From positions 3,582,177-3,646,176 of the forward strand of contig CP070695.1 in the NCBI GenBank assembly GCA_020353515.1: 64,000 nt of DNA, written 5' to 3'. This DNA is from Candidatus Heimdallarchaeota archaeon. GTDB taxonomy: Archaea; Asgardarchaeota; Heimdallarchaeia; Hodarchaeales; Hodarchaeaceae. The position numbers and the translations under genes are program-made. Below are positions 4,949 through 16,796 of the stretch, piece by piece. Under the pieces are notes generated by a model that saw only the letters and a program-made list of their open reading frames with translations, did no database searches and was not told where the DNA came from. Every line of letters begins with the position of its first letter. Position 1 is the stretch's first letter.

Positions 4949-5734
4949 TTGGAGGAACTGAAATCATTTCGGGAGCAAAATCATACTACTGAAACAATTC
5001 TAGATAAAATAAACTGGAAGTATTATGATATTGGAAATATGGGGTCAGATATTGCCATTGTTTTTTTACATGGAACTATTGGGAACGAAGAAATATTTTG
5101 GATTCAAATGGAGTCATTAATGAGTACCTATCGGATAATAAGCTTCGACCTACCTCCTATAATAGGAGTTGATGCATTATCTCAAGGAATATATGAAATA
5201 CTTAGCAAATTTAATGTAAAAAGAATAGTCTTGATTGGGACATCGTTCGGCGGATATTTAGCCCAATTTTTCTCGTTTAAATATAAGGAAATGGTTCAAA
5301 AACTTGTTCTTTCGAATACTTTCAAAACAACTCACCTTTACAACCAGAAATACAAAAGATTACTCATGCTTGAGAAGTTAATCCCAACTTTTCTAATAAA
5401 AAGATTCATGAGAAAAGGTCTGTTATCACTCGAACATGAACGAACTCGCGATTATCTTCTTAGCCAATTAAAGCATCAACTAACAAAAAAGACACTTATG
5501 GCTCGATTGAAGAGTTTTATTACAGACGTGGAACTCAACAATGCGCCAATAGACCAAGTACTAATCATCGAAACAATAAAAGATCCATTGGTACCAGAAC
5601 AATTACAAGATGAGTTAAAAAAGGCATACCCAGAAGCTTCTGTAAAGACGTTTGGAAAAGAAGCGAACCATTTCCCTTATCTTACAATGGGTGATGATTA
5701 TACTCGAACTTTGATAGACTTTCTAGAGAATTAG
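4949..5734 (+). CDS. Alpha/beta hydrolase, maspardin (SPG21)-like
   Basis: FLHG, GTSFGG nucleophile elbow, IKDPLV acid, NHFPYL His. Confidence 0.85.
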   Translation: MEELKSFREQNHTTETILDKINWKYYDIGNMGSDIAIVFLHGTIGNEEIFWIQMESLMSTYRIISFDLPPIIGVDALSQGIYEILSKFNVKRIVLIGTSFGGYLAQFFSFKYKEMVQKLVLSNTFKTTHLYNQKYKRLLMLEKLIPTFLIKRFMRKGLLSLEHERTRDYLLSQLKHQLTKKTLMARLKSFITDVELNNAPIDQVLIIETIKDPLVPEQLQDELKKAYPEASVKTFGKEANHFPYLTMGDDYTRTLIDFLEN

Positions 5735-5766
5735 GATTTTCACTAGTTAAAGGAAATGATTAATTT

Positions 5767-6732
5767 ATGGATCGAAGTGCTAGTATTTGTAAATCGGTCT
5801 TGGATGTAATTGGAAATACGCCAATAATCGAATTATCTCGATTAACAAAAGTTTTAGATGGCAAAATTTTAGCGAAGATGGATTATCTGAATCCAGGATT
5901 CTCAAAAAAGGATAGAATAGCTTTACAAATGATACAAGAAGCAGAACATTCAGGTGCATTAAAACCAAACCAAACTGTAGTAGAGTTAACTAGTGGCAAT
6001 ACAGGGACAGGTCTAGCAATTGTTTGTGGGATTAAAGGATATCCATTCATTGCAGTCATGAGTAAGGGGAATACAAATGAAAGAGCTCGAATGATGAGGG
6101 CACTGGGGGCTGAGGTTATTCTAGTTGAACAAGCTCCAGGATCAACACCAGGTACCGTTTCTGGGGAATCTTTGGAATTAGTAGAACAAGAAACAAACCG
6201 TATAGTAGAAGAATATGGAGCTTTCCGATGTGATCAATTTAATTTAAATGGAAATTTTAATGCGTGGTATTTACGCGCAGCAAGGGAAATTATCCAACAG
6301 ACAAAAGGTAATTTTGATGGTTTCTGTGATTTTATGGGCACCGGCGGAACATTTGCAGGATTATGCAGAGCCTTTAAGGAATTTAATCCCAAAATTCAAT
6401 GCTATGTTATAGAGCCAATTAATGCTGCAGTTGTTGCAGGGAACAAAGTTCTAAGTAGTGGTGATCACAAAATCCAAGGTGGAGGGTATGCAATGTCTAA
6501 TTTAATGTTTCTTAAGAATTTATCTATCGATGGCGCATTACAAGTTACAGATGAGGAAGCTTATGCTATTACAAGAAGATTGGCCAAAGAAGAAGGGATT
6601 TTTGCAGGTCCTTCCTCTGGCGCTAATGTTCACGGAGCACTGCAGCTCCTTAAGGGACCATTAAAAGGGAAAACAGTTTTTGTTGTACTCCCTGACTCAG
6701 GACTCAAATACTTAAGTACTGATTTATGGTAG
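5767..6732 (+). CDS. PLP-dependent cysteine synthase family protein
   Basis: IGNTP, NPGFSKKDR, TSGNTG, GTGGT, GPSSGAN, PDSGLKYLS motifs. Confidence 0.9.
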   Translation: MDRSASICKSVLDVIGNTPIIELSRLTKVLDGKILAKMDYLNPGFSKKDRIALQMIQEAEHSGALKPNQTVVELTSGNTGTGLAIVCGIKGYPFIAVMSKGNTNERARMMRALGAEVILVEQAPGSTPGTVSGESLELVEQETNRIVEEYGAFRCDQFNLNGNFNAWYLRAAREIIQQTKGNFDGFCDFMGTGGTFAGLCRAFKEFNPKIQCYVIEPINAAVVAGNKVLSSGDHKIQGGGYAMSNLMFLKNLSIDGALQVTDEEAYAITRRLAKEEGIFAGPSSGANVHGALQLLKGPLKGKTVFVVLPDSGLKYLSTDLW

Positions 6733-6740
6733 ACATAAAT

Positions 6741-8060
6741 TCATACAGGTCTCAAATTGCCCCATTTTTTTAAGGCCTTCTGAAGTTCAGGATGCGATTT
6801 AGCCTTCTCTTCGAGCGTGATTTCTTCTTGCCATGCCTCAATCGCTTGAACTGTGGCTTTGGTCCCTGCAGGAGTACCTCCAGGATGGCCATGAATACCT
6901 CCACCAACCTGTAGAACCATATCAGTGGTTCCATATACAGTTAGAACTTCTGGAAGAACTCCAGGGTGTAACCCACCAGAAGCTACAGGTAAGGTGGGTT
7001 TAATTTGACCCCATGTTTGCTCAAGTCTTCTACCCTTGTCTTCAGTAATTTCCTGTTTGAGAAGAAGATCTCTCATATCTAAAACGTCCTCCTTCGGACT
7101 ATCAAGCTTACCCACAACAGTTCCAATATGGATATTATCAACACCAATTAACCTCATCAATTTAGCTAAGAAGTACATACTTATACCATGCGTATAATGT
7201 TTAGTGAACGTTGCATGCATTGCACGATGTGCGTGTATAGCCATATCTAGATCGCCTGCCAGATTTCTAAGAGTCTGAACACTTGCAAATCCAGTTGTTA
7301 CGACATCAACCATGAAATATTTAAATCCATGATCATGAATAACCTTTGTACGGTTTTCCATCTCATGAGTTTCAGCAGTTACATTAATGAGTGCATCTTT
7401 TATTTCACCAGTTTCATTCTCGGCCTTATCTCTAACTTTTGCCATCTGTTCAACACGTTTCTCGAAAACATTAAATGATTGAGAGGTGAGGTTCTCATCG
7501 TCTTTAACCAAATCACCACCAGCGCTCCAAAAGTCCCAAGCTATTTCACAATGCTGTTCTACTGTCATACCAATCTTAGGTTTAGGGACGCATGCTAATA
7601 AGGGGCCTTCATTCTTTTTGAAGATCCGTTGAATTGCTTCAACTCCCATATGCGGCCCCTTTGATCCTTTAATATATTCTAAAGGAAGAGTCGCATCTAT
7701 TAGTCTCAAATTCTTAACAGCCTTCATACCAAAGATATTGCCAGCTATCCCAGACATTAGCTGAGGGATATTATCTTTTTCCCATAATATCAATGGATAA
7801 GCGATTTTTACTAAATGCTTATCATTCCAAAATGCCAATCCTCGCATATCAAATATACGATCATCTAATGTCTCTAAAGTGGTCCACGTACCAATAGAGG
7901 ATTCCGAAGCTAACCTCCCAATAGTGTCATCAATTGAAACTTCATCTGATTTATCAAAATAAAAAAGTGCAACCAAGTCTTTGTCTTTTGGTTGATAATC
8001 TCTCTTAATAAAATCGTGATACCATTCAATTTTCTCTTTTGTCATGATAAAACCTCTCAC
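6741..8060 (-). CDS. rbcL: Form III RuBisCO large subunit (likely start ATG 8045)
   Basis: SESSIGTW, AGNIFGMK, PKPKIG, DLVKDDEN, HAHRAMH, HIGTVVGKL, SGGLHPG, GGGIHGHP: all catalytic motifs present. Confidence 0.95.
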   Translation of the reverse strand: MRGFIMTKEKIEWYHDFIKRDYQPKDKDLVALFYFDKSDEVSIDDTIGRLASESSIGTWTTLETLDDRIFDMRGLAFWNDKHLVKIAYPLILWEKDNIPQLMSGIAGNIFGMKAVKNLRLIDATLPLEYIKGSKGPHMGVEAIQRIFKKNEGPLLACVPKPKIGMTVEQHCEIAWDFWSAGGDLVKDDENLTSQSFNVFEKRVEQMAKVRDKAENETGEIKDALINVTAETHEMENRTKVIHDHGFKYFMVDVVTTGFASVQTLRNLAGDLDMAIHAHRAMHATFTKHYTHGISMYFLAKLMRLIGVDNIHIGTVVGKLDSPKEDVLDMRDLLLKQEITEDKGRRLEQTWGQIKPTLPVASGGLHPGVLPEVLTVYGTTDMVLQVGGGIHGHPGGTPAGTKATVQAIEAWQEEITLEEKAKSHPELQKALKKWGNLRPV

Positions 8061-8157
8061 AGTTTAGGTTCTCTTTATTTTTTACTTACTTCAATAGTAA
8101 GCTGATTTTTTGTTTATTAATACAGATTATTCTAAGAAATTCTTATCTTTTAAGATG

Positions 8158-9384
8158 CTAAATAAACGGGAGTGTTTCATCGTTTTCAACTCCCTCAGCC
8201 TGTACCATGAACTTCCAGCGGGTAAGCAGACGCTGAAATGCTTCTTTTATATTTTCGTCTACAGATAAATGTGATTCTCCTTGAAAATTAAATAAGCGAA
8301 GTATTTTTGACTTTGTTTCAAATTTTGCTTCCAATCTTCCAATAAAATCACCTGAGTAAAAGAGGGGATATACGTAATATCCCCATACGCGATCTTTAGG
8401 CTTTTTATATACTTCCCACACATATTCATAACTAAATAACTTATTTAAAAGCTGTCTATCCCAAATAAGTGGATCCAATGGCCCAATGACTCTCATCTCA
8501 TCATCTAGCTCTTGTTGGCATAAATTTTCCCAATTTGATGGAACAATAAAGCCCAAGCCCTCATCTTCTAATTGAACAAGTGAAGGTAGAAGATCTTTGG
8601 TAGATTCTCCAATTAATAGTTTTTCGGGAGAAATAGCTATTCTTTTCCCAAATCTGATTTTTCCATCTTTCTTGATGGTTATTTTACCAGTAGGAGTCAC
8701 AGGGAAACTTTTTATCTTGAGTTTGAGCTTCATAAAACGTTGTTCTTCCTCCGAGTAAGATTCCTTTTTCAAATGTGATTTTTCGATATAGTTCTCAATC
8801 AAATCATACGTTTTTCGGAAGTTATTATCTCTTAATACAGCAAGTTTACCCATAGCCCACAGAAGTTCTAGAGCTGTTCCTGAATTCCGACTAGTCTTCC
8901 AGACTGCGTATTTTGGATCAGCTTTTCCTAATTCAGTTAAATCGGAACCCCGAGTAATACCATGAGATCTAACATACTCCAATACCTGATCAAGCATATC
9001 AGGGTGGGTTTCTTCAAGTATCTTCAATGCTCGACTGTAGTATCTTCCAAGTTGATCTCGCCCAAGCGTTTGAGAGTAGAAAAGAGGAAAAAAATCAACA
9101 TGAATCGCGTTTAAATTATGAAAATATGATTCAAAAATTAATTTCTCTGAATAAGCAATTTTTTCATAATCTCCTTGCTGATAATCTTGTATCCGAGAAC
9201 TAAAGAAATAGTCATGGTACCTACCAGCAGGATTAAGAGGATCAAGTTGAATTAAACCCTGTTCTTTAATGATTTTTCTTACATCGTTACCTTGCCAACG
9301 ATGGAGATGACATCCCACTATTAACAGGCGTTTCAGTTCTTTCTGGGTAATATGAGGAATCGATGGCATTACTAACGTCCTCAA
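8158..9384 (-). CDS. YcaQ/AlkZ-family (HTH_42) crosslink-repair DNA glycosylase (likely start ATG 9369)
   Basis: QLDP (QxD) motif, wHTH, and GPLDPLIWDR...YVWEVYKKPKDRVWGYYVYP C-terminal signature. Confidence 0.85.
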   Translation of the reverse strand: MRTLVMPSIPHITQKELKRLLIVGCHLHRWQGNDVRKIIKEQGLIQLDPLNPAGRYHDYFFSSRIQDYQQGDYEKIAYSEKLIFESYFHNLNAIHVDFFPLFYSQTLGRDQLGRYYSRALKILEETHPDMLDQVLEYVRSHGITRGSDLTELGKADPKYAVWKTSRNSGTALELLWAMGKLAVLRDNNFRKTYDLIENYIEKSHLKKESYSEEEQRFMKLKLKIKSFPVTPTGKITIKKDGKIRFGKRIAISPEKLLIGESTKDLLPSLVQLEDEGLGFIVPSNWENLCQQELDDEMRVIGPLDPLIWDRQLLNKLFSYEYVWEVYKKPKDRVWGYYVYPLFYSGDFIGRLEAKFETKSKILRLFNFQGESHLSVDENIKEAFQRLLTRWKFMVQAEGVENDETLPFI

Positions 9385-9516
9385 TGGATCTCATATTGTT
9401 ATGTTAACCCAGTTTTTCAACGGCTTAAAGTTGAGCTTGTTCATTCTCTCTTTATATTTTACCAATCCTCTTATAATAATTGCATATTCTCTACTTACCT
9501 AACCTAAAAATCAAGT

Positions 9517-11934
9517 GTGAGAAGAAAAATCATGGCTGAGGCGTGCAAAACTCCTAAAGATATCTGGAAACCATCAGAAAAACTTAGTCCAAGAATAAAA
9601 AAACTTCGAGAGGAATACTTTTCTTTTTATGAAAGGTACGATAGATATACAAACGAAGTAAGGCCTTATACCACGGGTCGAAAGTGGGATAATGTCTATT
9701 CGTTCTTTCATTGGGGAGTGACGCCTGAAGGCATTCCATTCTTTCCAGGATTTAAAGATACTTTACGAGTACTAGCAGAAGTTGTTCAATTTCCAGATGA
9801 ATACTATCGACGAACAATTGCTGAAAGAAAAGCATTATTTTTCAACAAGGTTCTTGCAGATCATCTACCAGTATTGATATTAGAAGGAGAGTTGATAGTA
9901 GGGAGTCATTTCAATACAGCACTAAGTAAAGTTTTAACTGAATCAGAAACAAAAAAATGGGATAAAGGTCAAACAGAATTTTTTAAAGAACTAAAGTTTC
10001 GATGTGAAACAGGAGAATTTAACTACGGCGCAATCCCAGGTCATCTTGTTCCTAATTATCCTAAAGTTCTCGAGAAAGGCTTTTCAGGAATCCAGAAAGA
10101 ATTAAAAGAGTTACATGCTCAAATAAAAAAACCAGAACAAAAAACATGGCTTCAAGCACTAATTGATTCGTGTGAGGGACCTCGAGTATTAGCTAAAAGG
10201 TATTCAGATGAAGCTAAACGATTAGCTAATAAAGAATCTGATCCTAAACGTAAGGAAGAATTGATAAAACTATCAAGAATCTGTGCTAAGGTACCTTGGG
10301 AACCTGCAAACACCTTTTGGGAAGCAGTACAATCTGTTTGGATGACTCATGCATTAGTATTAGCTGCTGAGAGTTATCCAGGCGCTGGAACAAGTCCAGG
10401 ACGTATCGACCAATTTTTCTATCCTTATTACAGGAATGATGTTGAAAATGGAACATTAACAAGGGAATTTGCCAAAGAATTACTTGAATGCTATTGGATA
10501 AAACATAATTATGCTTATGACTTCCAAGGCCAAATAGGTAACTCACAAGGTATTAATTCGAGCTTTGGACAGCTAATAACAATTGGTGGGATTGATGAAA
10601 ACCACGAAGACGCTAGCAATGATTTGACATGGTTAATACTAGAAGTGATTGAAGAAATCAATCTCCTTGAACCAAAACCAAATATTCGCCTTCATGCGAA
10701 AACCCCTCAACCCCTTATGACTCGAGTCGCGGAGCTAATAGCAAAAACTCAAGGATCACCTTTCTTGATGAATTTTGACGAACTTGCTATAAAAGCACTA
10801 GTCTGGCAAGGAATACCAAAGAAGGAAGTTTGGAATTATGCTCCAGTCGGTTGTCTTGAAAACACCATGATTGGAAATGATGTATCTGGAACAGTAGATG
10901 TGAATGTCAATATTGCTAAAGCTGTTGAACTTACTATGAACAATGGTAAGGATATGAGGCTAGATATGCAATTAGGACCAAAGACTGGAGATCCAATAAA
11001 AGACTTTAAATCTTTTGATGAATTTTTGACTGGTTTTAAAGTTCAATTACAAGCTCTATTGGATCGAGCAATTGAAGCTTATAATTTTGCAGATAAACTA
11101 CGACTAGACTACGAACCTGTTCCATACGTGTCTGTTTTAGTTGATGGATGTGCTGAATCAGGAAAAGATGCGCGATCTGGGGGAGCAAAATATAACTTTA
11201 CAACAGTAGAAGGATTAGGACTTGCAAATGCAGCTGACTCGTTGGCAGCCATTAAAAAATTAGTTTATGAAGAAAAAAAAGTGTCGATGGAGAATTTAGT
11301 GGCAAATTTACGATCAAATTTCGAGGGAAACGAGGAACTTCGACAACTATTGATTAACCATGCCCCTAAATTTGGTAATGATGATGATTATGTTGATGAA
11401 TTAGCGCGAGAAGTATCACGATTTTGGGGAGAATATGTATTCAAGAAAAAGTCTCCAGCGACGGGTCGCCAATATCGAGGTGGATATCTTTCTTGGAATT
11501 ATTTTATTAGTTTTGCGCCGAAAACTGCAGCATTACCAGACGGAAGACTTCAAGGAGGCTATTTATCTGGTGGTGTTGGACCTTATCAAGGAATGGACAT
11601 TACAGGCCCAACTGCTTCCGCTTTATCTGTCGGAAAACTAGGATTAGAAGTTCATCCCAATGGTACTTCTCATACAATGAGTTTCTCTCCAGCGTCCCTA
11701 CGTGATGAAGAACATATTGAAAAAATGATAGCATTTTTACGGACATATGCTAAAATCGGTGGAACAGCTTTGCAAACGAATGTAATAAGTTCTGAAACCC
11801 TCATTGAAGCTCAAAGGCATCCTGAGCAGTATCGAAATTTATTAGTCAGAGTGACTGGATACAATGCCTACTTCACAACTCTGGGTAAAGAACAACAAGA
11901 TGAAATCATTGCTAGGGAATCACATAAGGTTTAA
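9517..11934 (+). CDS. Glycyl radical enzyme of unassigned substrate (likely start ATG 9532)
   Basis: GRIDQFFYPYY, single-Cys loop VGCLE, Gly loop VRVTGYNAYF; about 800 aa. Confidence 0.93.
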   Translation: MRRKIMAEACKTPKDIWKPSEKLSPRIKKLREEYFSFYERYDRYTNEVRPYTTGRKWDNVYSFFHWGVTPEGIPFFPGFKDTLRVLAEVVQFPDEYYRRTIAERKALFFNKVLADHLPVLILEGELIVGSHFNTALSKVLTESETKKWDKGQTEFFKELKFRCETGEFNYGAIPGHLVPNYPKVLEKGFSGIQKELKELHAQIKKPEQKTWLQALIDSCEGPRVLAKRYSDEAKRLANKESDPKRKEELIKLSRICAKVPWEPANTFWEAVQSVWMTHALVLAAESYPGAGTSPGRIDQFFYPYYRNDVENGTLTREFAKELLECYWIKHNYAYDFQGQIGNSQGINSSFGQLITIGGIDENHEDASNDLTWLILEVIEEINLLEPKPNIRLHAKTPQPLMTRVAELIAKTQGSPFLMNFDELAIKALVWQGIPKKEVWNYAPVGCLENTMIGNDVSGTVDVNVNIAKAVELTMNNGKDMRLDMQLGPKTGDPIKDFKSFDEFLTGFKVQLQALLDRAIEAYNFADKLRLDYEPVPYVSVLVDGCAESGKDARSGGAKYNFTTVEGLGLANAADSLAAIKKLVYEEKKVSMENLVANLRSNFEGNEELRQLLINHAPKFGNDDDYVDELAREVSRFWGEYVFKKKSPATGRQYRGGYLSWNYFISFAPKTAALPDGRLQGGYLSGGVGPYQGMDITGPTASALSVGKLGLEVHPNGTSHTMSFSPASLRDEEHIEKMIAFLRTYAKIGGTALQTNVISSETLIEAQRHPEQYRNLLVRVTGYNAYFTTLGKEQQDEIIARESHKV

Positions 11935-11936
11935 CA

Positions 11937-12884
11937 ATGATGACGGATATAATGGGTCATGTACTAAACATTCAACGGTATAGTACTGAAGATGGACCTG
12001 GCATTCGTACTACAGTTTTTTTACAGGGATGTTCACTCAGATGCAAATGGTGTCAGAATCCGGAGAGTTTTGAACTACAACCATATTTAGTATGGTATAG
12101 CGATAGATGTATTGCTGCCAGACACTGCATTGAAGTATGCTCAGATGATGCACTTGAACTCACAAAAGAAGGAATGCAGATAGATCGATTTCGTTGCACA
12201 TCTTGTGGAAATTGTGTACAAATATGTCCAACAAAAGCATTTGAAACCCTTGGACGGGAAATGACTGTCGATGAAGTGGTGTCTCAATCTCTCCGAGATA
12301 AATCTTTTTATAAAGAATCAAATGGTGGAGTCACACTCTCAGGGGGAGATCCTCTTTACCAACCAAAATTTTCGCTAGCAATTCTAAAAGATCTCAAAGA
12401 TAACGAGGTTCATACAGCCCTTGATACTAGTGGTTATGCTAACCAAGAAACTTTTGAAAAAATCGTGAAACTTACAGACTTAGTTCTACTAGATCTCAAA
12501 GTTATTGATCCTAAAGTTCATAAGAATATCACTGGTGTTGATAATAAAACGATCCTTTCAAATGCTCAATGGTTAGGACAACAAAAAATTAAAGTTTGGA
12601 TTCGGACTCCGATTATTCCATCATATACTGATCAAGAGAAAAATATCCAAGCAATTGCATCTTATATTAATAAAAATATGGCTAATGTTGTTGAGCGTTG
12701 GGATCTCCTATGTTATAACAATATGTGCATTTCAAAGTGGAAACGATTGGATTTATCTTATGAATGTGAAGATCTTCCATTAATGTCAGAAACAAAAATC
12801 AAAATATTAGCAAAAAATGCTCAATCAGCAGGAGTACCAGTCACGTGGTCAGGTGTTGTTGATAAAACGTGGGTGAAATATTAG
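11937..12884 (+). CDS. Glycyl radical enzyme activating enzyme (radical SAM with ferredoxin insert)
   Basis: DGPGIRTTVFLQGCSLRCKWCQNPES, additional Cys clusters (CIAARHCIEVC; CTSCGNCVQICP), GVTLSGGDP. Confidence 0.94.
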   Translation: MMTDIMGHVLNIQRYSTEDGPGIRTTVFLQGCSLRCKWCQNPESFELQPYLVWYSDRCIAARHCIEVCSDDALELTKEGMQIDRFRCTSCGNCVQICPTKAFETLGREMTVDEVVSQSLRDKSFYKESNGGVTLSGGDPLYQPKFSLAILKDLKDNEVHTALDTSGYANQETFEKIVKLTDLVLLDLKVIDPKVHKNITGVDNKTILSNAQWLGQQKIKVWIRTPIIPSYTDQEKNIQAIASYINKNMANVVERWDLLCYNNMCISKWKRLDLSYECEDLPLMSETKIKILAKNAQSAGVPVTWSGVVDKTWVKY

Positions 12885-13678
12885 TGAAACTACCTAAAAC
12901 TGTAAAAGAAGCTTTTGCATTGGAATTAGAGGCAGCTAAATTTATGGCTACTCGTGATGCAAATGGAGTACCAAATATAGCAATGATCTCAACCATCAGT
13001 CCATGGGAGAAAGATGAAGAGCAATTGATTTTTGGTAATTTTTTGATGTGGCAAACAAAAAAGAATCTTGAGAATGGATCACCAGTCTCGATTTCCGTGA
13101 TGACCTTAGACTTCAAATCCTATGAGGTTAGAGGAAGATTTCTTGGTTTCGAGACTTCAGGGGAGAAATTCGATACAATGAGTAGCAAGGATCTTTTTCG
13201 TTACTCTGCTATTGGTTTGTTACGAAGTGTTGGGACCATTGCAATTGATGAGATCTATCCTATCAAGCTAAGTATGCTAGGTGTTGGAACGGAATGGTTT
13301 TTGGCAAAAATTGCTGGAAAAAGAATCAAAGATCTTGAGAAAGGAAAGGGTATAAATCCATTAGTAATGCAAAATGTTGGTGTGCTTCAAGGATCAAAAT
13401 TCTTAACAGTCTCACGAAAAGACCATATGGAACAATTTCCCATCTTAGGAATGAAACCTGTGGATGATTATGTTATTATCCGTTCAGATCTTCCATTGAA
13501 AGAAGGAGATAATATAGCAATATCAGCTTTCAATATGGAACTTAAAGCTTTCCAAATAAAAGGAGAATATATGGGAGTAAGACGGTCAAGAGGAGTAAAG
13601 TTTGGTTATATTAGAGTGAACAACGTTCTGACACAAACACCCCCTCTTGTTTCTCGAGAAGTTCCAACTGATAATTAA
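12869..13678 (+). CDS. Tandem pyridoxamine-5'-phosphate-oxidase-like (FMN split barrel) protein
   Basis: KFMATRDANGVPN...TKKNLE...SYEVRG domain followed by a degenerate second copy (SKFLT...AFQIKG). GTG at 12884 overlaps the activase stop. Confidence 0.75.
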   Translation: MGEILVKLPKTVKEAFALELEAAKFMATRDANGVPNIAMISTISPWEKDEEQLIFGNFLMWQTKKNLENGSPVSISVMTLDFKSYEVRGRFLGFETSGEKFDTMSSKDLFRYSAIGLLRSVGTIAIDEIYPIKLSMLGVGTEWFLAKIAGKRIKDLEKGKGINPLVMQNVGVLQGSKFLTVSRKDHMEQFPILGMKPVDDYVIIRSDLPLKEGDNIAISAFNMELKAFQIKGEYMGVRRSRGVKFGYIRVNNVLTQTPPLVSREVPTDN

Positions 13679-13947
13679 CCATTGTTGTGGATTCTTTCTT
13701 ATTTTCTTCTTCAGTTTTTAGCTTTATAAGCATTGGCCAGAAAATCTGAGTTATGATTATTTTTATTTCAGTAATATTAAATGTTGATAATAACACTATA
13801 ACTCCTTAATTTTTGAATAATACTAAACAATAAACTATTTAAACCCTTAATTTTTTATTTTATTTGATCAATGATTTTTGTGCATTAGCTCTTTGCATTG
13901 ACTCAAAAATTAAGTAGACCAATATATCGAACAAAAGAAGATTAAAA

Positions 13948-14097
13948 ATGATAAAAATAATAAAAAGTGTTATTCCAACTTCATGGTTTCAAATAAAGCA
14001 AGATGATAAACTACGTCAGACAATTGTAATTGTTTCTTTGCTTATTGAAGTATTAAGTATACTTTTAATAGGATTTTACTTAAAATCGTATATATGA
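13948..14097 (+). CDS. Putative 49-aa small protein with C-terminal TM helix (not in ORF track)
   Basis: MIKIIKSVIPTSWFQIKQDDKLRQTIVIVSLLIEVLSILLIGFYLKSYI, ending in TGATGA. Confidence 0.35.
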   Translation: MIKIIKSVIPTSWFQIKQDDKLRQTIVIVSLLIEVLSILLIGFYLKSYI

Positions 14098-14116
14098 TGA
14101 AAACTATTTCTGATTT

Positions 14117-15157
14117 TCAAACATAATTTTCATATAAAACATCGTATTGATTATTTGCTTTAAATACAATTGTTTTCACTTTTTTAATAATTAGATTTAC
14201 TTCCTGTTTTGTTATAACAGGGAAATTATGGAGTTTATTTAAATATTTCAAAGGTTTATTTTGTGCTATTCTCTCTTGAACAAATTTTTCATGTCTTTTT
14301 AACCGATTTTCAATATATTCATTCGCAAATTCTACAAGATCTCTTATTCTAAGGTTTATTGTCTTTTCGAACCTAGAGTCGAGTTCATACCCAATACTAT
14401 TTCTTCCTGAACTCATCGCTGCAAGAGTTGTTGTTCCAGTACCGAGAAAAGGGTCTAAAACAATATCTCCTTTAACTGAAAACATATTTATCAATCGATA
14501 TGCCAAGTCAAACGCGAAAGCTGCGCTTCTTTCCCTAGTTTCATTATTCATAGCTTGAGATGTTCCTTTGATGAACCAGAGATCTGAAAACCAAATATTT
14601 CTTTCCTCCCAAAAATAAGAGCTTTCCTGTCGATTTAATTTCTCTGTGGCATTTTTAAACTCTCTTTTACCACCCTTTCTTAGGATCAAAATAAATTCAT
14701 GTTCTAATGTAATATATGCACCAGGGGGAAGCATTCCTGATCCCATGAATTTGTTTGGTGCATTGGTCGGTTTCCTCCAAATAATTTCTGGTAAAATACT
14801 GAATCCAAGTTTACAACAAAATTCCAAGATCCGTGAATGGTTTGCATAGAGGCGAAATTCTTTCCCAATCGTTCTAACAGCATCACCTACGTTAATACAA
14901 GCAATTCCTCCACTTTTAAGTACACGATAAATTTCTACCCATGTTTTATCGAGCTCTTGATGCATCAACTCAAAAGCTAAAGATCCATCTTGGACATCTA
15001 AAGCATTTTTAATCTCTGGACTCATTTTAGAAAACAAATTGTCCCACAATTCTATGATTGGATACGGGGGACTTGTTATTACTAAATCTATACTTTCTGT
15101 ATCAATGTCCTCCATTTTATTGGAATTAGTAAACTTGATCTTGTGGTAGGTTTTCAT
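14117..15157 (-). CDS. Orphan N4/N6 DNA methyltransferase (beta class)
   Basis: TSPPY precedes LDPFLGTGTT; IIWRK, HEFIL motifs. Confidence 0.9.
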   Translation of the reverse strand: MKTYHKIKFTNSNKMEDIDTESIDLVITSPPYPIIELWDNLFSKMSPEIKNALDVQDGSLAFELMHQELDKTWVEIYRVLKSGGIACINVGDAVRTIGKEFRLYANHSRILEFCCKLGFSILPEIIWRKPTNAPNKFMGSGMLPPGAYITLEHEFILILRKGGKREFKNATEKLNRQESSYFWEERNIWFSDLWFIKGTSQAMNNETRERSAAFAFDLAYRLINMFSVKGDIVLDPFLGTGTTTLAAMSSGRNSIGYELDSRFEKTINLRIRDLVEFANEYIENRLKRHEKFVQERIAQNKPLKYLNKLHNFPVITKQEVNLIIKKVKTIVFKANNQYDVLYENYV

Positions 15158-15317
15158 GACTGAATATTCACCAGAAATAATTGCTCAATACATAAAAAAT
15201 ACTGATCAACTGAAAAGACTTTGGGATATTCATCAGAAAAACATAGGAAACTGATAGAAATAACAGAAAAGACTTCTTTTCTATCAAAAGTTTTCGACAG
15301 TGAACATTTCCTAACTA

Positions 15318-16796
15318 GTGTTTCTAAATGCTATTAAATCTAACGGAAAAATTAATTTTAGACGTTTTATTCTGGAATGGGGACATTTGAAAGACATTAG
15401 TGAAACAACAAAACCAAAGGTGTTACAATTTTGGAAAATGGATGAAAAAATATATGCAGCTTTTTCCTCAGTTATTGCAGCGATCTTTTTAACCATAATA
15501 AAGTTTATTGTTGGGATTTGGAGTGGGAGTTTAGGTCTCCTTTCTGAAGCCCTTCATTCAGCCCTAGATCTTGCAGCTGCCGGAGTGACACTTATGGCTG
15601 TTCGATCGTCTTCAAAACCAGCTGATCAAGATCACCAGTATGGACATGGAAAAATAGAAAGCTTATCAGCCCTATTTGAAACGATTCTTCTATTAATTAC
15701 AATAATCTGGATCGTTTATGAAGCAACGCGAAGAATTTTACTTAATGAATTGGAAATCATTACTCACCCAATTACTTTTGGAGTAGTGATCCTAGCTATT
15801 ATTATTGATTACTCTAGGAGTAGGTTACTCTACAAAATGGCTAACAAATATGATAGTCAAGCATTGAAAGCTGATGCCCTTCATTTTAGTACTGATATTC
15901 TAAGCTCTTCAGTTGTATTTATTGGATTAATTTTCGTCATGTTTGGATTTCCGTTAGGTGATCCACTCGCAGCTATTGGAGTAGCAATTATTGTTTTACT
16001 TATGACCATTAATTTGGGAAAAGAAACAGTTGATTCGCTTCTAGATCGTGCTCCCCCTGGAGAAAAAGAAAAGGTACAATTAGCAGCAGAACGCGTAGTG
16101 GGAGTAATTTCATGTGAGAAGATTCGAATACGGAAATCAGGGATGGTTACGTTCGTAGATCTAGCAATTATAATAAATCCAAACATATCATTAGAAAAAG
16201 CTCATTCTATAGCTGAAAATGTCACAATAGAAATTCAAAAAGTCATAAATTACGCTGATGTGAGTGTTCACATGGATCCAGCTTCAGAGGATCTTACTCC
16301 TTTAATTAAAGCCATAAGAAAAGAAGGTAAGCGAACTGAATGGATTCTAGACATTCAAAAAATATATGCTTTCGAATTTTTGGGGAAACTATCAATCGCT
16401 CTTCACATTGTAGTTGAGGCTGAAAAAAGCCTTGGTGAGATTTACCAAAGCTTAGAAGATTTTAAAGGAAGTCTTCGAACTATTGATCCACGAATTTCTG
16501 AGGAGTATTTAAATTTCCATATAGAACCTTCTGAAACAAAAAAACCTCTAAAACTTAACTTTAAAGAATTAGAAAAAAGAATCCAATTTTTAACAGAGGA
16601 AAATGAACTTCTTAATAATCCTCATGAAATTAAATTATATAAGATACCTTCAGGAGTTTTTGTTTCCCTACATTGCAATACTCAGCCAATCTTATCTGTA
16701 GAAGAAGTTCATAAAGCTACAGTCATCTTGGAAGAAGCCATTTCGAGAGAAATTCCTGGTGATTCTCATATATACATTTTTGTAGAACCACAATAA
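15318..16796 (+). CDS. CDF/FieF cation efflux transporter with three C-terminal metal-binding domains (likely start ATG 15438)
   Basis: SEALHSALD, HQYGHGKIE, ADALHFSTD; VHMDP, FHIEP and IFVEP end three ZT_dimer-like repeats. Confidence 0.9.
   Translation: MFLNAIKSNGKINFRRFILEWGHLKDISETTKPKVLQFWKMDEKIYAAFSSVIAAIFLTIIKFIVGIWSGSLGLLSEALHSALDLAAAGVTLMAVRSSSKPADQDHQYGHGKIESLSALFETILLLITIIWIVYEATRRILLNELEIITHPITFGVVILAIIIDYSRSRLLYKMANKYDSQALKADALHFSTDILSSSVVFIGLIFVMFGFPLGDPLAAIGVAIIVLLMTINLGKETVDSLLDRAPPGEKEKVQLAAERVVGVISCEKIRIRKSGMVTFVDLAIIINPNISLEKAHSIAENVTIEIQKVINYADVSVHMDPASEDLTPLIKAIRKEGKRTEWILDIQKIYAFEFLGKLSIALHIVVEAEKSLGEIYQSLEDFKGSLRTIDPRISEEYLNFHIEPSETKKPLKLNFKELEKRIQFLTEENELLNNPHEIKLYKIPSGVFVSLHCNTQPILSVEEVHKATVILEEAISREIPGDSHIYIFVEPQ

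Follow-up and report, generated by a model that had tools for sequence, protein, structure and literature searches.

A widespread glycyl radical enzyme system with a tandem split-barrel partner encoded in a Candidatus Heimdallarchaeota genome

A 64,000-nucleotide stretch of the genome of Candidatus Heimdallarchaeota archaeon (GenBank assembly GCA_020353515.1, contig CP070695.1, forward-strand positions 3,582,177 to 3,646,176), hereafter the window, carries a real, widespread and uncharacterized three-component system built around a glycyl radical enzyme (GRE). Three coupled open reading frames (ORFs) on the same (+) strand, spanning window positions 9532-13678, encode the oxygen-sensitive GRE, its activase (AE) and a split-barrel protein (SB). 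Systems of this general kind are known, but a partner of this type has not been described. We read the operon as a self-contained three-component GRE system in which SB may be an accessory protein, particular to this clade, that helps to install or maintain the radical, a reading to which we give a probability of roughly 0.45.

GREs catalyse demanding anaerobic reactions, and entire clades of them have no assigned function. A large share of the Asgard archaea carries the clade described here, as do subsurface Chloroflexota, Actinomycetota and Thermodesulfobacteriota. Its sequence is strongly constrained, its archaeal and bacterial members being 56-61% identical, including a unique N-terminal region, and its accessory protein is of a type unreported for the GRE superfamily. 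To identify the GRE substrate would bring a further reaction into the anaerobic carbon cycle of sediments and into the physiology of Asgard archaea, and to define the role of SB would bear on the installation or protection of the glycyl radical, which is the main practical bottleneck of the field (PMC13450708).

Operon structure and domain content

An earlier note on this DNA, made by a model from the sequence alone, had described three tightly coupled genes with a 2-nt gap followed by a stop/start overlap, and both the ORF coordinates and the TAGTG junction bear this out (Table 1). The GRE ORF is open further upstream, from a GTG at position 9517. There is another possible start for the SB gene, a GTG at position 12869, which would give a 16-nt overlap with the AE gene.

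The GRE matches the Pfam families PFL-like (PF02901, E 1.9e-151) and Gly_radical (PF01228, E 8.9e-29). The VGCLE loop with a single Cys, quoted in the earlier note, and a glycyl loop that fits the superfamily pattern RVxG[FWY] (RVTGY, 11848-11862) were both read from the DNA. The Cys loop aligns with the GCVE of PDB entries 1r8w and 5i2a, and residues C441, L442, E443, N444 and T445 are invariant within the GRE clade. The glycyl radical is predicted to lie on Gly776. The PFL-like family and the GREs in PDB align only from about residue 165 of the protein. GREs of clades A and B, the two clades with which SB occurs, match the family model from positions 1-17, and the other Asgard GREs only from about positions 127-170.

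The second gene was proposed to encode a ferredoxin-type activase, and three kinds of evidence agree with this. The product scores 335 bits on TIGR02494 (cut-off 174), it matches the Radical_SAM family and has the CX3CX2C motif, and Fer4 families are matched at residues 55-104. It thus carries a ferredoxin-like insert with two further Cys clusters. The same genome (G000) has a second GRE outside the window (G000:C1:889738-892473, - strand), with a full-length PFL-like match of 745 bits. This second GRE adjoins a short activase without the ferredoxin insert and has no adjacent SB; only one SB is present in the genome.

Table 1. Positions of the operon genes, their motifs and the flanking features in the window
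Feature	Position	Strand	Remarks
GRE gene	9532-11934	+	ATG at 9532; 800 aa, same form as protein-collection entry P0035
GRE N-terminal region	9532-10020	+	~160 residues; particular to SB-associated GRE clades; strongly conserved within the clade
His171	10042-10044	+	Counterpart of glycerol dehydratase His164 by alignment; clade-invariant
Cys loop VGCLENT	10846-10866	+	Read from DNA; Cys441 10852-10854, Glu443 10858-10860 (C-x-E)
Glycyl radical loop RVTGYNAYF	11848-11874	+	Gly776 (predicted radical Gly) 11857-11859; clade-invariant; in Gly_radical domain
AE gene	11937-12884	+	315 aa; begins 2 nt past the GRE stop
Radical SAM motif CX3CX2C (CSLRCKWC)	12030-12053	+	Read from DNA in the AE gene
SB gene	12884-13678	+	264 aa; GTG start; one base common to the AE TAG stop (TAGTG)
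SB N-terminal barrel	12884-13273	+	Residues 1 to ~130; conserved core; KF.AT.D..G.PN and (K)T..NL
FRYSAIG loop	13196-13216	+	Family consensus FRYNAY.G; most conserved SB motif; N barrel only
SB C-terminal barrel	13331-13675	+	Residues ~150-264; diverged duplicate; conserved Q.KG, PP tail
T-rich stretch	13679-13730	+	Immediately after the SB stop; sequence read
AlkZ-like DNA glycosylase	8158-9384	-	Directly upstream of the operon, opposite strand
RuBisCO large-subunit homologue	6741-8060	-	439 aa; both RuBisCO domains matched; upstream of the operon

Family assignment and probable chemistry of the GRE

By its sequence the GRE belongs to an uncharacterized group, clade A, of the C-x-E eliminase/isomerase class. 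Its best match in PDB is the B12-independent glycerol dehydratase 1r8w (E 1.6e-128, 433 bits, residues 165-803), and the next-best solved relatives are propanediol dehydratase (405 bits), CutC and HypD. In the same comparison the alpha subunit of benzylsuccinate synthase (BSS; 4pkc) reaches 236 bits and 1-methylalkylsuccinate synthase (MASS; 9o8u) 260 bits, against 433 for glycerol dehydratase. The score is below half of the cut-off for every NCBIfam equivalog: HypD (487 against 1100), CutC (406 against 1050), the sulfopropanediol dehydratases HpsG/HpfG (471 and 433, each against 1000), indoleacetate decarboxylase (331 against 1100), 4-hydroxyphenylacetate decarboxylase (HPAD; 257 against 1150), NF007437 (366 against 1109) and pyruvate formate-lyase (TIGR01255; 118 against 994). 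Even the broad model of the PFL2/glycerol-dehydratase subfamily, TIGR01774, is not reached (525, cut-off 678). The GRE therefore stands outside every curated family, as the earlier note had proposed. The single Cys, in place of Cys-Cys, and the TIGR01255 score also uphold its claim that the enzyme is not a pyruvate formate-lyase. One of its arguments failed, namely that CLE rather than CVE could be used as a diagnostic. The C-x-E motif is common to all eliminases and isomerases, and the residue between Cys and Glu, which is Leu in this GRE and Val in diol dehydratases, is free and has no diagnostic value.

Whether the GRE keeps the substrate residues of a characterized family was examined by alignment to 1r8w. 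Cys433, Glu435 and His164 are retained as Cys441, Glu443 and His171 (800-aa numbering). The glycerol dehydratase pocket is replaced: His281 is Ala, Ser282 is Gly and Tyr339 is Gly, each of them invariant in the GRE clade. These small residues suggest a substrate larger than glycerol, which is probably also polar. The 1,2-eliminases have C-x-E in common with the ring-opening isomerases YbiW, PflD and HplG (Imrich et al. 2026 review, PMC13450708). The Glu of this motif forms a hydrogen bond to the hydroxyl of the substrate and deprotonates it, and the proposed general acid that protonates the leaving group is, in glycerol dehydratase, His164 (PMC13450708). Since C-x-E and a counterpart of His164 are both kept, eliminase/isomerase chemistry is indicated. 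Most likely the chemistry is of this known type and acts on a new substrate; a radical reaction of a new kind, as the earlier note had it, is plausible.

The following sequence of events would fit these residues. From what is known of the family, AE with S-adenosylmethionine and a reduced [4Fe-4S] cluster would put the radical on Gly776, from where it would pass to Cys441. The thiyl radical would take a hydrogen from the carbinol carbon of the substrate, Glu443 would deprotonate the hydroxyl of that carbinol, and His171 would protonate the leaving group on the neighbouring carbon, leading to cleavage of a C-O bond or, with lower likelihood, a C-N or C-S bond.

The split-barrel protein

The third gene was predicted to encode two split barrels fused as a single-chain pseudo-dimer, and structure prediction, fold comparison and profile comparison all support this. 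The AlphaFold2 model of SB, built with 31 homologues, has a mean predicted local distance difference test score (pLDDT) of 90.4; both of its lobes are all-beta, and a helix connects them. In a Foldseek search the N lobe is matched to HupZ (5esc), the Swol_0183 flavin mononucleotide (FMN)-binding protein (3in6) and the D. vulgaris FMN-binding protein (1flm-type), all with probability 1.0 and target-normalised TM scores of 0.74-0.84, and an SB lobe is also matched to F420 reductases and the prenylated-FMN maturase PhdC. A profile of the SB family (86 members) retrieves HupZ (E 5e-10) and FMN-bound Swol_0183 (E 1e-8) from PDB, and the KT..NL helix motif is common to the SB N-domain and to HupZ/Swol_0183. 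When the profiles of the N-half and C-half are compared with hhalign, they match with a probability of 98.5% (E 2.3e-15, 102 columns), and SB is therefore an internal duplication.

The two barrels differ in their conservation (Table 1). R106 and Y107 of the FRYSAIG loop are invariant across the diverse family, and a 19-residue gap lies in the C-half at the site of this loop. The loop is also the least confident block of the model (pLDDT 63) and is probably flexible. A short resemblance between the glycyl loop of the GRE (RVTGYNAYF) and the SB consensus FRYNAY was set aside as probable chance, since only the four residues YNAY are shared and Asgard SBs read RYSAI. No invariant or nearly invariant Cys was found in the 31 close or the 86 diverse SB sequences, and SB is therefore not an Fe-S subunit. 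The earlier note had also reported no gene for a small Fe-S subunit; there is indeed none among the operon ORFs, which include no small Cys-rich ORF, and the flanks are antisense. From its fold and the one shared helix motif, KT..NL, SB may bind a flavin, although certain members of the FMN-binding split-barrel fold bind none.

Shorter forms of SB that consist of the N barrel only (140-162 aa) were found in loci L123 and L124 (genomes G038 and G047) and in L121, L122 and L128 (G012 and G023). The N-only SB follows GRE and AE in L123 and L124, which belong to one Asgard family. In another Asgard family a distance of 20-24 kb separates it from a clade A GRE; the genes after that GRE in G012 (L128) encode a galactokinase-like GHMP kinase and an alpha/beta hydrolase.

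Conservation and distribution of the cassette

A collection in which each species is represented by a single genome was scanned with clade-specific peptide patterns and yielded 369 confirmed stretches encoding a relative. The locus analyses cover the best 80 of these 369 stretches, and gene order was taken from the 59 loci whose downstream sequence exceeds 2.3 kb. Among the best 80, the archaeal loci are from Hod-, Heimdall-, Thor-, Hel-, Jord- and Promethearchaeota, and the bacterial loci represent at least six phyla (Chloroflexota, Actinomycetota, Thermodesulfobacteriota, Acidobacteriota, Spirochaetota and Bacillota). GRE, AE and SB follow each other on the same strand in 55 of the 59 loci, and SB is present in two more (57/59, ~97%). 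The split-barrel gene is thus conserved next to GRE homologues in both Asgard archaea and bacteria; its absence there had been named in the earlier note as a possible refutation. The same GRE-AE-SB order also occurs in Thorarchaeota, other Loki-type contigs, Jordarchaeales, Actinomycetota, assembly GCA_040961035.1 (L007) and a sequencing-run contig (L038).

Searches that started from SB gave a similar picture. Homologues of 50-89% identity are from Asgard archaea in all cases. An exhaustive profile search returned 362 cluster representatives, of which ~100 are full-length two-domain proteins, down to ~20% identity, and a full-length SB is present in ~110 of 301 Asgard genomes. AE and/or GRE accompany SB in 26 of the 30 SB loci examined with a 1.5 kb flank. 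Within the genus of the window's genome, SB was found only in G000, G262 and G253, the genomes with a clade A GRE; the exception is G184, which has a GRE fragment at a contig end and no SB. In three further genera (g7, g11 and g23) SB and clade A/B GREs occur one-to-one in the same genomes. The window's proteins and their bacterial counterparts share 57-61% identity in the case of the GRE and about 25-30% in the case of SB.

Some clade A/B GREs have neither AE nor SB beside them, and the trio is therefore not obligatory. Possible decay of the cassette was seen twice: the C-terminus of the GRE is broken by a stop in L134:1-762 (G189), and SB is in two pieces in L113:13380-14176, where AE was not detected. 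In a FastTree phylogeny of 84 GREs the window's enzyme falls in a well-supported Asgard group with sequences from Hod-, Heimdall- and Thorarchaeota, and the remaining Asgard groups are interspersed with bacterial ones. Movement of the cassette between lineages is evident. The backbone of the tree is unresolved, so that we make no claim on the donor or on the direction of transfer.

Gene neighbourhood and substrate clues

The immediate co-directional neighbours of the cassette were surveyed by all-against-all clustering and Pfam scans. No universal neighbour gene was found in this survey, only lineage-specific additions. A truncated acyl-CoA-dehydrogenase-like gene lies upstream in 11 of 52 loci, and those cross-checked (L005, L050, L053 and L086) are Actinomycetota. 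There is a GNAT gene downstream in 7 of 32 loci, with ORFs of ~180 aa, apparently of Thorarchaeota type. Enoyl-CoA hydratase, a thiamine pyrophosphate enzyme, radical SAM, GH4 and GHMP kinase genes are sporadic, the sugar-type neighbours (GH4 and GHMP kinase) being present in a few Asgard loci. In this window there are no comparable pathway-type neighbours (acyl-CoA dehydrogenase, GNAT, GH4 and others). With no universal neighbour and none in the window, neither a lipid/ether nor a sugar substrate is adopted here; the absence of a universal pathway neighbour fits an accessory role of SB.

Genes inserted between GRE and AE were found in at least 11 loci and encode acyl-CoA dehydrogenase, creatininase or nitroreductase-Fer4 proteins. 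The insert is a 435-aa acyl-CoA dehydrogenase in L091, with ORFs of equal size at the same place in L080, L090, L093 and L116; these five loci are Dehalococcoidia plus one Acidobacteriota bin. A creatininase-family gene is inserted in L078, with an ORF of similar size in L057, and the insert in L087 is a nitroreductase with a 2x[4Fe-4S] domain. In contrast, the gap between AE and SB is never wide enough for a gene in the 55 loci with the GRE-AE-SB order, the widest being ~780 nt (L089).

AE-SB pairs also occur in two genomes where no clade A/B GRE was found, at L133 (G138) and L135 (G137). L133:42-3340 (contig C132 of G138) has a GH4 glycosidase, AE and SB in this order, with no adjoining GRE. 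Near it are a gene for DUF447, another split-barrel family, and a GHMP kinase gene, and the genome has ~9 other GREs, none of clade A/B. In G137 (contig C99) a 62-aa stand-alone glycyl-radical domain is encoded directly upstream of AE-SB (L135:1703-1891, + strand; Gly_radical E 4e-8, loop FRISGYNAFF), and the search of G137 yielded no full-length GRE of clade A/B. This small ORF could be a GrcA-like spare part or the remnant of a deletion.

Role of the split-barrel protein

The proposed role of SB is the weakest step of our proposal, as gene order ties SB most tightly, not exclusively, to AE. In this proposal SB would work with AE, most likely as a flavin-binding relay of electrons to the auxiliary clusters of AE, and would not be a pathway enzyme. 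Three observations speak for SB on the activation side: inserted genes split GRE from AE and never AE from SB, AE-SB pairs persist in L133 and L135, and in the window's own genome SB accompanies only the AE with the ferredoxin insert, not the short AE of the second GRE. The homology of the SB N-domain to FMN-bound Swol_0183, with which it shares KT..NL, supports an activation role of flavin type.

Several points weigh against this reading. A donor of its own is not an obvious need for AE, since other GRE activases draw on ferredoxin or flavodoxin of general use. To our knowledge HupZ, the closest solved relative of SB, is not a confirmed flavoprotein, and the window's SB is below the cut-off of Pfam PNPOx_N (23.7, cut-off 28.1). 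The active-site pocket of the GRE was mapped by pairwise sequence alignment to 1r8w and not on a structure. Clade A/B GREs without adjacent AE or SB exist (L094, L128, L136 and L137). In seven Asgard loci (L008, L010, L014, L021, L036, L064 and L119) SB directly follows the GRE, with AE displaced or not nearby, and the N-terminal ~160 residues of the GRE could be a docking module for SB.

The last two points would also be expected if SB were a small subunit of the GRE, bound in stoichiometric amounts and free of Fe-S clusters, with a function like that of BSS beta/gamma, MASS delta or HPAD gamma, and perhaps seated on the N-terminal module. We consider this close rival somewhat less likely than the reading above. 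In its favour, SB occurs with GREs of clades A and B, whose N-terminal region other GREs lack (G137 and G138 being exceptions), its presence follows that of clade A/B GREs in the sampled genera, and the superfamily already includes accessory subunits with a regulatory part in radical installation (PMC13450708). A GRE subunit would fit poorly with AE-SB pairs in genomes where no clade A/B GRE was found, or with insertions that part GRE from AE-SB and never AE from SB. The identity of SB to its bacterial counterparts (~25-30%, compared with 57-61% for the GRE) is also unusual for a tight obligate interface. SB was not found fused to GRE, to AE or to other domains among longer proteins, which is weak evidence. 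A complex prediction with the full GRE and only the N-domain of SB (residues 1-146) gave a score of 0.01 (mark 0.32) and is neutral on binding.

An enzymatic role of SB appears unlikely. SB would then be a flavin- or deazaflavin-dependent pathway enzyme that isomerises, oxidises or reduces the carbonyl/enol product of the GRE or prepares its substrate, giving a two-step mini-pathway. Many split-barrel proteins (PNPOx-like, F420-dependent) are oxidoreductases, the Foldseek matches include F420 reductases and PhdC, and the conserved polar residues K19, T23, N31, T58, N61, R106, Y107, R114, Q224 and K226 could form an active site. As no other pathway gene is conserved beside the cassette, an immediate follow-up step would have to be carried out by SB. 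However, downstream enzymes of GRE pathways are not usually linked as tightly as SB is (~97% across phyla), the conserved loop is missing from the C-terminal barrel, and some lineages have the N-domain only. AE-SB pairs survive without a cognate GRE, and the neighbourhood has no conserved gene for a dehydrogenase or an electron donor of SB.

That the GRE has a known function (pyruvate formate-lyase, glycerol dehydratase or alkyl/benzylsuccinate synthase) with SB as an unrelated neighbour is suggested by the source annotations ('pyruvate formate lyase family protein', 'formate C-acetyltransferase'), by Ass/Bss-like labels given to Asgard GREs on 29-33% identity (PMC8163825) and by the best PDB match, but this is highly improbable and, from the single Cys, the unreached PFL and subfamily cut-offs, the replaced pocket residues, the low BSS alpha/MASS scores, the lack of beta/gamma subunit genes and an SB adjacency across domains that is beyond chance neighbourhood, largely refuted. 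The labels 'pyruvate formate-lyase' and 'alkylsuccinate synthase-like' are thereby corrected for genes of this clade, the bit scores arguing against the Ass/Bss-like label in particular.

If SB acts on the activation side, it might be the first flavin-type, non-Fe-S accessory of a GRE, a dedicated partner controlling the installation, re-reduction or quenching of the radical, while the C-O bond cleaved by the GRE would belong to a larger substrate, polar or lipid-linked. This more specific proposal is tentative. A candidate substrate would be, for example, an anhydro- or ether-linked polyol, handled by no known anaerobic enzyme. If true, this would be the first functionally definable archaeal PFL-like GRE system, shared with sediment Chloroflexota and Actinomycetota.

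Comparison with known systems

The closest sequences are those of glycerol dehydratase DhaB1, with its activase DhaB2, of Clostridium butyricum (1r8w/1r9d) and propanediol dehydratase (5i2a/5i2g). The window's system resembles DhaB1/DhaB2 in its fold, single catalytic Cys, C-x-E Glu, counterpart of His164 and ferredoxin-like insert in the activase, and the logic of radical 1,2-elimination is probably the same. It differs from DhaB1 in having A/G/G for H281/S282/Y339, in the N-terminal ~160 residues, which do not align, and in its failure to reach the subfamily cut-off. Unlike the DhaB1/DhaB2 operons it has a conserved third gene, SB, and no dhaT-type or microcompartment genes. C-x-E is also shared with YbiW/PflD (1,5-anhydrohexitol-6-phosphate), HypD, CutC, IslA/IseG and HpsG/HpfG, with scores of 313-402 bits, and the ring-opening isomerases YbiW/PflD provide a precedent for ether-type C-O cleavage beside a carbinol. 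However, equivalog scores for these enzymes are below half of the cut-off, and their systems have no split-barrel partner. In contrast to other C-x-E eliminases, the neighbours of this GRE clade are not conserved.

The co-inheritance of a GRE with a small accessory protein is found in benzylsuccinate synthase (beta, gamma), 1-methylalkylsuccinate synthase (beta, gamma, delta) and 4-hydroxyphenylacetate decarboxylase (gamma). Known accessory subunits of GREs regulate solubility, the substrate channel and glycyl-radical installation (PMC13450708). They are listed for these three GREs only, HPAD, BSS and MASS, and all are high-potential iron-sulfur protein (HiPIP)-like, with a [4Fe-4S] cluster, or rubredoxin-like (PMC13450708, 2026), whereas SB is a duplicated split barrel with no conserved Cys; a split-barrel partner is thus of an undescribed type. 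The catalytic subunit is here eliminase-like, unlike those of the XSS-like or decarboxylase-like multisubunit GREs. Full-text literature searches found no paper in which a GRE is connected with a split-barrel partner, so that both this result and the subunit list of the review uphold the claim of the earlier note that no characterized GRE has a PNPOx-like partner. Within the library searched there was also no paper linking Prometheoarchaeum to pyruvate formate-lyase. Every functionally characterized PFL-like GRE is bacterial, and archaeal GREs are an open gap (PMC13450708).

With respect to fold, the SB N-domain is homologous to COG3576-type HupZ (5esc), Swol_0183 (3in6) and the D. vulgaris FMN-binding protein. 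These are single-domain homodimers of ~120-150 aa with no known link to radical enzymes, while in SB two barrels are fused into a pseudo-dimer, which carries a FRYNAY loop particular to its family and a PP tail and is encoded in GRE operons. The functional analogy behind our preferred reading is flavodoxin, the reductant of the E. coli PFL-activase, which is a small flavoprotein that gives an electron to an activase. Flavodoxin has a different fold and is a general, unlinked housekeeping protein, whereas SB is an operon-encoded, clade-specific split barrel that is known from sequence and model.

Operon boundaries and flanking genes

The flanking genes are on the opposite strand, that downstream being a convergent DNA methylase gene, and the SB stop is followed by a T-rich stretch (Table 1), which is a possible archaeal oligo-T terminator closing the operon. 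The three genes therefore form a stand-alone operon. An Rfam scan of window positions 8000-15500 detected no RNA element. In the AT-rich spacer before the DNA methylase gene there is an ORF of ~50 aa with a hydrophobic stretch (13948-14098, + strand), which nothing marks as a gene. Farther upstream, a pyridoxal phosphate-dependent enzyme and an alpha/beta hydrolase are encoded at 4949-6732 (+ strand).

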